Source: Eledone cirrhosa | Lineage: Eukaryota | DNA length: 64,000 nucleotides | Direction: 5' to 3' | Assembly (NCBI GenBank): GCA_964016885.1 | Contig: OZ024753.1 | Span: forward strand, 1,364,001 to 1,428,000 | Part shown: piece after piece, positions 1,226-56,882 of the stretch | Layout: the number at the start of each line of letters is the position of its first letter | How positions within the stretch are numbered: position 1 is the first letter of the stretch | The notes under the pieces: generated by a model | Told to the model about the DNA's origin: nothing | Database searches by the model: none | The model's input: the letters and a program-made list of their open reading frames with translations, nothing else | Program-made: the position numbers and the translations under genes

Positions 1226-1414
1226 TAATATATATATATATATATATATATATATATATTGTTATACTTTGGGAGGGTCATGTTGCCAATAAGAAACACA
1301 CGCACCAGTTGCTTTCACTTCAATTTAATTTAATATATATTTATAAATTTACAAATTTATAAATTTCTGGTTGGTTGGTTGGTTCCACAACCAGATAGTT
1401 GTTTATATATATAT

Positions 1415-1459
1415 AGTCATAGTTCTTTCGTCACACACTCTGTGACCTCTTCAGTGACT
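1415..1459 (-). ncRNA. Minimal type-I hammerhead ribozyme (mirror copy in the palindrome arm)
   Basis: Reverse complement of 1564-1608. Confidence 0.72.
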
Positions 1460-1563
1460 GGGGATTTCTTTCTTCGTTTCTGTGCCTTTCCTTTCTTCTA
1501 TCCTACGCCATTTTGCGTAGGATAGAAGAAAGGAAAGGCACAGAAACGAAGAAAGAAATCCCC

Positions 1564-1608
1564 AGTCACTGAAGAGGTCACAGAGTGTGTGACGAAAGAA
1601 CTATGACT
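1564..1608 (+). ncRNA. Minimal type-I hammerhead ribozyme
   Basis: AGUCA-CUGAAGA-G-GUCACA(GAGUG)UGUGAC-GAAAG(AA)CUA^UGACU: stem I AGUCA/UGACU, core boxes CUGANGA and GAAA, 6-bp stem II, very short stem III, CUA cleavage triplet. Confidence 0.75.
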
Positions 1609-2293
1609 ATATATATATAAACAACTATCTGGTTGTGGAACCAACCAACCAACCAGAAATTTATAAATTTGTAAATTTATAAATATATATTAAATTAAAT
1701 TGAAGTGAAAGCAACTGGTGCGTGTGTTTCTTATTGGCAACATGACCCTCCCAAAGTATAACAATATCGGTTTCAACACACGATTTCAGATAAAGAATCT
1801 TGCTAAACAAATTCAGAAACGAAATATATATATATATATATATATATATATATATATATATAGGGCGAATTAGCTGGTCCGGCTCTCTGAGTACTAATAC
1901 TGCCGAGGTCAACTTTGCTATTCATCCTTTCCAGGTCGATAAAAAAAAGTACCAGTTTAGTACTGGGGTCGATTCTTCTTCTCTCTCACTCTTCCTCTGG
2001 AAGAAATCTGCTGTACTCAGGCCTGGGGAGGGACGGGTGCCGCCAGGTTAAAAATGACTACGACTCTATTAGGAGTTGCAGGACCATACATACATACATA
2101 CATACATACATACATACATACATACATACATACATACATACATACATACATACATACATACATACATACACACACACACGCACGCACGCACGCACGCACG
2201 CACGCACGCACACACACACACACACATACATACATACATACATACATACACACACACACACACACGCACACATACATACATACATATATAGAC

Positions 2294-2498
2294 AGTCGAT
2301 CGACTTTCATCAAATCGGACCGACGAAGCAATGTTTCCATTGGTCTTTCCAATTGCTAATACTATCTATCATTCGCAAATCCAGGTAAAAAGAGCAACGT
2401 GAAATAAAGTGTCTTGCTCAAGGACATAACGCATCGCCCGGTCCGGGAATCGAAATCACTACCTCACGATTGCGCATCCTACTCAGCCATGCGCCTTA
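2294..2498 (-). mobile_element. tRNA-derived SINE family B
   Basis: Minus-strand head AAGGCGCATGGCTGAG...TTCGATTCCCGG, then GTCCTTGAGCAAGACACTTTATTTCACG. Other copies at about 6705-6860(+), 20463-20667(-), 51192-51337(-), 57996-58200(-) and 63770-63855(-). Confidence 0.8.
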
Positions 2499-2504
2499 TA
2501 TATA

Positions 2505-53319: not shown

Positions 53320-53930
53320 TTATACGGAAAAAATCTGTCATAACAGATTTTAAAAATTACAAATTCATCAGCTTCATATATAACAACGAGCTTGCAAACC
53401 GTATCAATAGCGTCTTAGACTTCAATCAACGAAACCAAGGGAACAAACAGGGCTTTAGAAGTGGGTTTTCAACAACCGACCATTTACAGGCCATAAACAA
53501 AATAATTCAGAAATATTGAGAATACAGACAATCATTATGTTTAGGCTTTATCGATTATGAGAAAGCCTTCGACGTCATTGAAATACCAGCTATGCTTGAA
53601 ATTCGTATTGATCGGAGAACGCACCAAACTTAGATATAAATTAATAAGAAAATCTATAATTAGGTATAAGACTTCATACGGAAAGTGAAAGGATCAATAT
53701 TGTAAGTTGCGCAGGAAGATATCTTTAAATAATTTAACTAAAATAGAAATGGAATCAACATAAATAGTGAATTTTGATGTTATTTATGCTACGCTACGAT
53801 GACGAATTAACCATCTCAGGCGATGTCTGTGAACTGGAACAGATGTTAAATGAACCGAACAAAGAAAGCAACAAGGTAGGACTAAAAATAAATATGAAGA
53901 AAAGACAGCTTATGTTCGACTTTGAAGTCA
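53320..53930 (+). mobile_element. RTE-like LINE RT fragment
   Basis: QGFRSGFSTTDHLQAINKIIQK, LCLGFIDYEKAFD, LEQMLNEPNKESNKVGLKINMKK. Confidence 0.8.
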
Positions 53931-53944
53931 ACATAACCTGATCA

Positions 53945-54450
53945 GTTATGATTGGGGAAACTTGGATACCTTCATGAATTTATTGGAATATTCAAAAAAC
54001 TCCATCAAAATACGAAAGCAATGGGACACTTTCAGAGTCAATTTCAGTCAAAAACGGTGTCAAACAAGGCGACATACCTGCACCCACTGTTCTCCTACTT
54101 TACCATGCTACTGACATATGCCTTCCAAGACTTTGAAATCGGTGTGTACTTGCAAATTAGAACCTCTGGCAAAGTATATAATCTAAAACATTTTAACACC
54201 AAGTTCAAAACATTTGACATTCTTGTCAGGGAGTTCCTGTATATTGATGATGCAGATTTTGTGGTATACACAGTAGAGGGCATGCAGTTAATATTGAACC
54301 ACCTTCTCCAATGCATGCACTGTGTTAGGCCTAAATATTAGTATAAAAAAGACAAAGCTCATGTACACTTCACCAGTTGGGGAATGTATGTGGAGCCAGG
54401 CATTTTAGTGAGATGGACAACTTTGTGTATCTCGGAAGTACACTTAGTAT
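53945..54450 (+). mobile_element. RTE/BovB-like LINE RT fragment (separate element)
   Basis: KNGVKQG..PAP, GVYLQIRTSGKVYNLKH, VREFLYIDDA, NFVYLGSTLS. Confidence 0.78.
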
Positions 54451-55233
54451 TAGTAGATACATATTTATATATATATGTGTGTGTGTGTGTGTGTATATAT
54501 ATATATATATGTGTGTGTGTGTGTATACATGTGTGTGTGTGTGTGTGTATACATGCAGGCAAAGACGCACCAGCGTACACTCGAACATATGTATAATATC
54601 TAAATGTATGTATGTATGTGTATATATATATATATATATATATATATATATGTATGTGTGTGTATATATGTATGTATGTGAGTGCACATTTACTCCACAG
54701 ATTCATTCAAACAAGTAGCAAACAGAAGTGAAAAGAGAAGTAAAAGTAATAAAAAAAAACACGAAAATAAACAATAAAAAAATTAAATAAAGCAAAAGTA
54801 AATCAATGACAAAAATTAAATGAATAACCAAATGACTATATGTAGTCCCTCCTCCAAACAAAAGAAACCCCGCATATGGGGACACAAAAATACCCGGTTC
54901 TATTTATTTTAGGGTTCGAGCATGCTATCTCCTCAGGCAGTGTAAACATATTAAGCTTGTATTGTTCCCCAAGAGATTCAGAACAAATATTCAATAGACT
55001 GTTGGATAACAAAAACCCAGATGTTTTTGTTTTATATATAGTTTCTTCTTTATACACCCTCGCAGGATTCTGTGTCTATATAATCGAGTATCATATAACC
55101 TATATATCGTCTCTATATTTGTTTATATAGCTTTGCTTTATTTTGTATCGCAACAGCAAAAACAACAGTAACAACCGGTCAAACCCTAGTATATGTAAAT
55201 CACGGACCATATGGTTTTTATGTTGTATTTATA

Positions 55234-55313
55234 TACAAGGTGTCCCCCAAAAATGTATACATACTTCAACAATATTCTAATAAATATGTGTATACATTTT
55301 TGGGGACCCCCTA
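55234..55313. mobile_element. Tiny Tc1-type MITE (related pieces at about 42630, 44730 and 45555)
   Basis: GGTGTCCCCCAAAAATGTATACA ... TGTATACATTTTTGGGGACCCC in TA context. Confidence 0.6.
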
Positions 55314-56663
55314 TCTCTCTCTCGCTCTCTCTCTCTCTCTCTATATATATATATATATATATATATATATATAGTGAAAAATGGAACGGGAACAAAACAG
55401 AGAGGCAGTACGAACAAAGGTTTATTAGTTTCACGCTCTTGAGAGTAAAAGAATATATATATATATATATATATATATATATATATATATATATATATAT
55501 TGTTTCACCTGTTCCAGCCATCCGGCTGAAGCCATGCTAGAGCACCGCCCTTATATATATATATATATATGTGTGTGTGTACCAAACCAGACAAACTGAG
55601 CTTGTGCTAGTACGTTGAACTTTCCAACTAGCTCAATGAATTCACGGGACTTGAACTTTCGAAGCGCCAATCCGTGATTCAGAGCGTCCACATTTAGTTA
55701 TTAGTGGTAAGTTCGGGATTATTTGCGGGTGTAAACAATTTAGCCCGGACCAAACGAAATTGCTGGTTTCTACTCCATGCCCTGTGCACTGCGGTTCAAT
55801 AAGTGCACCCAGTACGCAGAAACCACGCATTAAACCCAGAGTTGCACTTCCGAAGCGTCAGACCGTGATTCAGAGCGCATTAGATCCAGAGTTGTCTGGA
55901 AGGAATCGACGAGGCCTGGATCAATACAGAATTTCGTCAACGGGAGCGATCCTTCTTGTTCTATCGTAAGGGTCTACTAGTGACGCAATTGCAATTCTTG
56001 CCTGCCGCTGTCGTCACGTGGTTTCCCAAGGCGTAGGAATATGTAGGCCCAAGATATAGAACTAATCACATGATTAGGCGGTTAAATTTAAAACAGTTTG
56101 AAAGTAGCGCCAGAAAAGCTTTCCACTTCGAATATAATTTTTCCCTTATTTCCTCTGTGAATATATCACAGAGTTGCCAGTATGTTCTGAGAATGTCAGA
56201 CAGAGCTGTTTCAAGATTTATTCATCTTTCATCAATGACAACACTCAACCCTACTGGCATAGAAATAGACTATATAGGATTTTGCGTGATGATCAATTGC
56301 TGAAAATCCTCATTCGAATATAGCGGAAACTTGGCTGGTTATATTTCATTAGAAGTAGCACTAAGAGAGGGGGGGAGGGGGGTGAAATTAAATATAGGCT
56401 GCACAGACCGACTAAATATGTTCACTATACACACCCTTATATTAATATACTTTTGCTTATAACTTCGTACTTACATGCATACACACTCTTACTTACATAT
56501 ACACACACATTTCTTAGTTTCGTACGGACGTATAATAACAGACACATGCTTACGCACGTGTACACGTATAGCTCTTTTTACAAAACGTTTTTTTTTTTTC
56601 ATTTCAGGTAGACGCGCTCCATCATCCACTTTTCTAAAATGCCAGCACCAACAGTATTGCAAG

Positions 56664-56882
56664 AGGTGTCAACATGAATAAACCTGTTATTTTTATCTAA
56701 AGACATTTTTTCCAATTCCAACCCGCCCGTCCCCTCAATCTATCTTATTTCTCATTATTTCTTTTGATGAAAGACTAGCGTCCGAAACGTTAAGACCCTC
56801 TTCCTGCTATATCAAGCGTTAACCTAATATATCCCTTCCATATACTGTACCGATTGTGTTGTTATTTCTGTTTACCTTTTAC
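56664..56882 (+). mobile_element. Penelope-like end fragment with minimal hammerhead (56760-56795), copy 2
   Basis: UCUU-UUGAUGA-A-AGAC(UAGC)GUCC-GAAACGUU^AAGA. Same family as 18088-18308; ends in (CATA)/(TA)n. Confidence 0.65.

Follow-up and report, generated by a model that had tools for sequence, protein, structure and literature searches.

What are the short islands with hammerhead ribozyme motifs that lie scattered across a 64-kb window of contig OZ024753.1, and what process left them at tracts of (TA)n? The window, meaning the whole stretch that was analyzed, consists of microsatellite-rich animal DNA, and all counts given here refer to it alone. An earlier note on this DNA had listed 13 such loci and described them as a community of non-coding ribozyme retroelements (retrozymes). 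The islands are instead probably the 5′-truncated 3′ ends of at least seven TA-targeting Penelope-like element (PLE) families of octopus, that is, remnants of pseudo-long terminal repeats (pseudo-LTRs) in which the hammerheads are likely passengers. They are likely to be ordinary, mostly decayed PLE debris, new as sequence families and not as a system.

In passages of Craig 2021 (PMC8557442), PLE insertions are described as highly 5′-truncated, often with an adjacent inverted truncated copy, with a one-sided tail of 30–40 bp and with hammerheads in the pseudo-LTR; (TA)n targets are given there for the Hydra and Naiad clades. The islands show the same features. A type I hammerhead of PLE form lies near the 3′ end, as judged by descriptor matches relative to shuffled sequence and by comparison with published hammerheads. 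A head-to-head inverted truncated copy is adjacent at six loci, one-sided tails of 24–144 nt are present, and the 3′ ends lie at AT-rich or (TA)n targets, with hammerhead N and the longer arm of insertion J as exceptions. In the literature, inverted arms combined with a tail on one side mark a truncated PLE insertion. The connection that the earlier note had drawn, to pseudo-LTR hammerheads of the Penelope type and to TA targets, is supported. The features are labeled A to N as follows.

1260–1823: insertion A, with left arm 1260–1508, 6-nt loop, right arm 1515–1763 and a 60-nt tail (1764–1823); TA tracts on both sides.
1564–1608, plus strand: hammerhead A, of the minimal type, with an intact core, an extra base after A9, 5-bp stems I and II and a 2-bp stem III.
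1415–1459, minus strand: mirror copy of hammerhead A within the inverted arm.
14067–14374: insertion B, with 71-nt arms (14067–14137 and 14160–14230), a 22-nt spacer containing a small hairpin, and a 144-nt tail; TA on both sides; hammerhead 3′ half with GAAA at 14161 and a palindromic stem III.
17033–17117, plus strand: 85-nt 3′ stub of family I between TA tracts, with no hammerhead; absent from the earlier list.
17136–17315, plus strand: island C, probably a decayed hammerhead, with an 8-bp stem I, a perfect palindromic stem III, two core changes and a long irregular stem II.
17402–17475, minus strand: island D motif, doubtful, with a damaged core and a near-palindromic stem III.
18090–18305, minus strand: insertion E, 216 nt, with a minimal hammerhead at 18177–18212 in which A6 is changed; TA tract at the 3′ end, short TATATA at the 5′ end.
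26047–26107, plus strand: island F, probably a truncated fossil, with an intact core, a Hydra-style extra U on both sides of stem II, a broken stem III and no stem I.
42697–42858: insertion G, with 35-nt arms, a 3′ half in which G12 is changed, and a 69-nt tail; it resembles J with a 21-nt gap in the left arm, the gap lying between two short direct repeats.
43498–43699: insertion H, with 41-nt arms around an intact-core hammerhead and a 64-nt tail on the opposite arm; TA on both sides.
43528–43588, minus strand: hammerhead H, with an intact core, a 10-bp stem II and a 4-bp stem III with a 1-nt loop.
44829–44999: insertion I, a perfect 32-nt palindrome centered at 44861/44862 with a 106-nt tail; hammerhead 3′ half with GAAA at 44880 and a 5-bp stem III.
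45055–45189: insertion J, an inverted repeat centered at 45110/45111, 10 nt upstream of the GAAA position, with a Hydra-style 3′ half and a 24-nt tail.
49574–49753, plus strand: insertion K, with a hammerhead at 49574–49651 (10-bp stem I, C3 changed) and a 3′ end, common to family H, at a TA tract.
55374–55452, minus strand: island L between TA tracts, a weak, possible 3′ half with a tiny fold-back, picked by neither the whole-motif nor the 3′-half descriptor.
56194–56240, minus strand: hammerhead N, with 5-bp stems I and II, a 4-bp stem III with a 2-nt loop, and C3 changed.
56666–56882, plus strand: insertion M, twin of E, ending at a TACA/TA tract; in its hammerhead (56760–56795) C3 and the first stem II pair are changed.

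The motifs were searched for using a type I hammerhead descriptor with CUGANGA, GAAA and UH boxes and one optional extra base beside stem II. Local dinucleotide shuffles served as controls (100 for the intact core, 60 for one core change and 12 for the loosest setting). The initial descriptor gave 0, 0 and 1 matches and missed real motifs because it permitted no unpaired base beside stem II. The option was added after the candidates had been seen; the extra base is a published feature, and in the portion of Cervera 2014 (PMC4209133) consulted an extra base after A9 is a constant feature of PLE hammerheads. With an intact core, three matches were obtained (1564–1608 on the plus strand, 1415–1459 and 43528–43588 on the minus strand) versus a shuffle mean of 0.04 and a maximum of 1. 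When one core change was permitted, six matches were found versus a mean of 0.65 and a maximum of 4, the additional ones being 49574–49651 (plus), 18177–18212 (minus) and 56194–56240 (minus). Both strict settings thus exceed the dinucleotide-shuffled controls, a comparison that the earlier note had proposed. The 13 matches at the loosest setting are at the level of chance (mean 8.2, maximum 15). Island C (17133–17253) passes this setting only, and the motifs of M (56760–56795), D (17402–17475) and F (26047–26092) fail every setting. The core boxes alone gave 7 matches versus a mean of 2.39, with 2 of 100 shuffles equally high. A 3′-half descriptor gave 26 matches versus a mean of 10.4, many of them AT-only, and picked just B, C, H and N among the candidates. 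No Rfam family matched at the gathering score and no hammerhead family appeared in three local E-value scans; the best 150 of 383 E-value matches are microRNA-like hairpin noise. CUGANGA sites at 17596, 18603, 45877, 46905 and 54936 (minus) were inspected and dropped for unconvincing stems.

The observation made in the earlier note was partly confirmed and largely holds. Its motif coordinates agree with the sequence. Nine of its 13 loci are supported (A, B, E, G, H, I, J, K and M), three are plausible as decayed motifs (C, D and F) and one is weak (L); one hammerhead, N, was absent from its list. The cores are damaged in most copies, so that the label hammerhead-bearing refers mostly to fossil motifs. 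All conserved core bases and three stems are found in A and H only. One of these two intact-core insertions, A, is locked in a perfect 249-bp hairpin: the predicted fold of a transcript through it is one perfect hairpin (−204 kcal/mol for 226 nt) in which the motif is buried. Self-pairing of stem III in dimers is predicted at −7 to −11 kcal/mol for B, C, H and G/J, and A and E are predicted to pair hardly at all. Minimal hammerheads were uncleaved as monomers in vitro according to the part of Cervera 2014 (PMC4209133) consulted. The copies are predicted to be inactive fossils as they stand.

Eight hairpin-type inverted repeats lie outside simple repeats in the window, and six of them are at hammerhead sites (A, B, G, H, I and J). 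Each of the six has one outer end 1–2 nt from a (TA)5+ tract, a position shared by 0.9% of unmasked positions (P ~ 1e-9); masking halts arm extension at a tract, and A is split at an internal 12-nt tract, with its true end also flush. The longer arm reaches a second TA tract in five of the six. These loci represent five independent events: G and J have a broken flank in common and count once, as duplicates of a single insertion. The tail of H aligns with the 3′ end of K and is therefore element sequence. A (TA)6+ tract is found no more than 250 nt downstream in 8 of the 10 better loci (null 0.177, P = 3e-5), a set that is not independent of the earlier selection, and in 4 of the 5 loci found by descriptor only (P = 0.004). 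The TA-flank enrichment proposed in the earlier note is thus present; N and J are the loci without a tract in that range. A short word around TTGAGTA recurs near 14290, 17063, 42808 and 44943, in the tails of three families (B, I/17033 and G), and is possibly a protein-binding site or a chance recurrence.

Seven families are supported (A, B, E/M, G/J, H/K, I/17033 and N) and three more are possible. The earlier count of at least eight unrelated families was therefore roughly right, except that H and K are related. E and M are 93.5% identical over 216 nt. Each carries a different core change, and therefore their ancestor likely had an intact core. The stub at 17033–17117 is 82% identical over 66 nt to 44914–44979. 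Both pairs, E/M and I/17033, share 3′ ends at TA. G and J are duplicate copies 2.4 kb apart. The identical ends of their short arms were considered as proof of a fixed internal start of reverse transcription (RT) and rejected, given the same broken flank and the duplication. For family A, at least half of 24 sampled words from the right arm were found in nine sequencing runs; with a possible source study set aside, the words occur in five runs from four studies under five organism labels. A further 11 rows, each with fewer than half of the words, were left out of account. No RNA run is among the listed holders of these words. The distribution fits a young repeat common to several species. Sequence nearly identical to 1520–1823 is present in runs of several organism labels and studies, which may reflect recent spread among related species or horizontal transfer.

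By the shape of stem III, H/K, G/J, N and perhaps F would belong with the Hydra clade, and A and E/M with the minimal-hammerhead clades. The Hydra-clade form, a 4-bp stem III with a short loop and a (TA)n target, was recognized by eye in H, K, G/J and N. The table in Craig 2021 (PMC8557442) includes Hydra-1_Obim of Octopus bimaculoides, a (TA)n-targeted family with a 4-bp stem III and 1-nt loop like that of H; the stem III of K, G/J and N matches other rows in form. In many Hydra-clade rows stem II is flanked by one extra U on each side, the arrangement also found in island F. As far as they are described there, Hydra-clade PLEs share with the islands (TA)n targets, a hammerhead near the 3′ end, an extra base beside stem II, a 4-bp stem III with a 1–3 nt loop, inverted truncated copies and occurrence in Octopus. 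They differ in that the window sequences are not the published Octopus family, have no coding part and often have longer tails. The Hydra clade is further marked by motifs of the RT and the C-terminal endonuclease (RWK, DKT, no CCHH), which fall in the coding part that the islands lack. Minimal PLE pseudo-LTR hammerheads, as published, resemble A and E/M in the short stem I, the unpaired base before stem II and the tiny palindromic stem III. They also resemble the window in that many families occur per genome, singly or as opposite-strand pairs; parts of Cervera 2014 (PMC4209133) report thousands of motifs per genome, mostly single, with some opposite-strand pairs 100–700 bp apart. In these accounts no difference of kind from A and E/M is apparent, only new sequence families.

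Several results weigh against the assignment to truncated PLEs. Among 246 open frames of at least 50 codons in the window, none was matched by a GIY-YIG family in Pfam, and one weak RT match (53771–53938) adjoins no island; the other Pfam matches are a Mos1-type helix-turn-helix (HTH), NSUN5 pieces, a C2H2 finger and noise. Tails exceed the published 30–40 bp in five of the six insertions. The nearest TA tract to hammerhead N is 643 nt away. The starts of E and M differ by only a few bases, which is what a defined short element would show. The clade labels rest on a stem of 9–10 nt compared by eye. Pattern scans gave 0 and 0 matches in metagenome contigs and 0 in viral contigs, and an exact search of the Craig supplement, whose text gives long sequences in abridged form, matched none of six window motifs. 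In frames read by eye, no PLE-like coding sequence was seen upstream of five motifs.

The amount of such sequence is as expected. An intronless frame of 596 codons at 39185–40975 on the plus strand matches PI-PLC X-domain proteins from three species of Octopus at 81–90% identity and that of Argonauta at 76%. From these identities we infer that the host is an octopodid. Membrane segments were predicted by eye in this gene; nine relatives passed the search, the named ones all being octopods, and Pfam assigned no family to the frame. In the Octopus vulgaris genome, PLEs make up 6.83% and comprise 190 families, 31 of them recently active. The 13 islands sum to 2,676 nt, or 4.2% of the window, and on this comparison their density is ordinary for an octopus genome. 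The window is a fair sample of known PLE debris in octopus and is useful for repeat annotation.

Compatible with truncated PLE insertions, and rather doubtful as it stands, is the view that some TA tracts were seeded or lengthened at insertion, in addition to the colonization of pre-existing microsatellites. At 1160–1259, the tract to the left of A begins inside a dispersed repeat, two aligned sister copies of which have no tract there. At G/J, the tract begins inside a repeat resembling a miniature inverted-repeat transposable element (MITE), and two aligned sisters have only a short TA-rich word. These are two sites only, however; the broken repeats do not continue in the far flanks, which leaves room for a tract older than the insertion, and many TA tracts in the window carry no insert.

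It is quite unlikely that some families, E/M first and perhaps A, are dedicated non-autonomous elements or retrozyme monomers with fixed ends of their own, cut or circularized by the hammerhead and copied in trans by PLE proteins. Both E and M are about 216 nt long with nearly the same 5′ start, although the start of E may merely be a truncation point. The right-arm words of family A in five runs of four studies would also suit such an element, and the available part of a preprint (Li 2026, 10.64898/2026.07.22.740005) reports dispersed monomers of PLE-derived retrozymes. As described in portions of Cervera & de la Peña 2020 (PMC7229834), retrozymes occur as tandem units, carry canonical hammerheads and give rise to circular RNA. 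In these descriptions the non-LTR retrozymes resemble the islands in being non-coding, PLE-related and of similar size with a type I hammerhead; they differ in their tandem arrangement, canonical hammerheads and circular RNA, whereas the islands have inverted arms and no tandem units. The same source, so far as consulted, separates minimal or PLE-type hammerheads from the canonical hammerheads of retrozymes. For 12 motifs, no tandem unit of the same family was found within 3 kb, except the G/J duplicate and a 28-nt same-family scrap that adjoins insertion A, and the tandem-repeat list of the window contains no retrozyme units. No unit is bounded by cleavage sites; the cleavage triplets lie in the middle of the inserts, and the 5′ ends vary. 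A community of retrozymes, as proposed in the earlier note, is therefore not supported.

Repair of host DNA at fragile TA tracts, fold-back there during replication, or artifacts of assembly, combined with motifs that are partly chance, might account for the identical arms of A (249/249), for the loosest descriptor being at chance level and the 3′-half background high, and for C, D, F and L, which could be chance; such an origin is most improbable, since all six TA-anchored inverted repeats contain a hammerhead or half of one, the arms of B, G, H and J have diverged, and the tails and family-shared 3′ ends require an element-specific process.

If the islands are truncated PLE insertions, their inverted arms may be explained by the following sequence, the early steps of which follow published PLE biology. 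A GIY-YIG/RT protein encoded elsewhere would nick AT-rich DNA. Synthesis of complementary DNA (cDNA) would start near the RNA 3′ end at either of two internal sites, which would give the tail, and would usually halt after 80–310 nt, near the hammerhead at ~50–230 nt from the 3′ end. We propose that the stalled cDNA end could then fold back on a hairpin or microhomology and be extended into the inverted arm, and that a fold-back at stem II would lose the CUGANGA half and leave a 3′ half. According to portions of Frangieh 2024 (PMC11167929), a PLE protein nicks AT-rich DNA, the tail is the stretch between two internal RT start sites, and hammerhead mutants insert normally in vitro. In the passages of Arkhipova 2013 (PMC3846280) consulted, the palindromes that occur where inverted copies join are taken as a sign of self-priming on the antisense strand. 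Both published features recur in the window: the palindrome at the inverted junction, and a tail on one arm only, as in the two-start tail of Poseidon (Frangieh 2024). The passages on self-primed and Poseidon insertions place no junction at a hammerhead stem, whereas three of the five junctions in the window lie 10–18 nt upstream of GAAA.

These three junctions are ~11 (B), ~18 (I) and ~10 nt (J) upstream of the GAAA position, in the place that stem II has to occupy; those of H (~48 nt) and A (~82 nt) are farther upstream, and both insertions keep whole motifs. Under exponential truncation with a mean of 100–300 nt, three of five independent junctions within 20 nt of GAAA has P = 0.045–0.002, in a rough model with half-motifs called after the fact. 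For the five whole motifs that were folded, the predicted terminal hairpin of a cDNA halted at the 5′ edge of stem II has −3 to −9 kcal/mol. What appears as stem II in I and J is the center of the palindrome itself, and its natural origin is uncertain without full-length copies. Of the five 3′ halves in the earlier note, those at 14160, 42740, 44880 and 45118 lie at the centers of inverted repeats, and the one at 55425 is weak; such halves would arise because the fold-back point falls where stem II belongs. In the left arm of J (45083–45093), a patch of 10–11 nt replaces the mirror image of the cleavage-site region.

It is conceivable, and we put it forward tentatively, that a stalled PLE cDNA uses the hammerhead's own stem II as the hairpin on which it turns back to prime the inverted arm. 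The literature covered, mainly open-access papers, showed no statement tying inverted-junction fold-back to hammerhead stem II, and fold-back at the ribozyme's own hairpin in some copies is possibly a new detail. If so, the ribozyme fold would set the truncation point and destroy its own catalytic half, and PLE hammerheads would have a structural part to play in the cDNA that is separate from cleavage. The octopus genome would be studded with perfect hairpins about every 10 kb, which would be double-stranded RNA substrates for editing or silencing. If true genome-wide, this mechanism would tie the origin of inverted pseudo-LTRs to a role for a hammerhead that is dispensable for insertion in vitro.

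Other features of the window were also recorded. A small MITE-like inverted-repeat family is found at 42615–42696, 44730–44800, 45588–45634 and 55240–55310; in two of these copies the break falls at one and the same internal TA-rich word, from which the TA tract ahead of G and I/J starts. At 56590–56680, a run resembling a splice acceptor and a short frame rich in Cys and His stop at the start of M and may be a host exon or part of the element. NSUN5-like exon pieces are located at 44499–44714, 45173–45405 and 63168–63563. The ferredoxin-like piece is present in two versions (78% alike) and precedes the N-terminal piece, an arrangement of duplicated or broken copies. A mariner-type remnant at 2507–3324 has terminal inverted repeats of ~100 nt (95%) and a Mos1-type HTH, and ends at a TA tract. 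Long minisatellite arrays with 30-nt and 15-nt units are present at 8951–9956 and 22319–25267.

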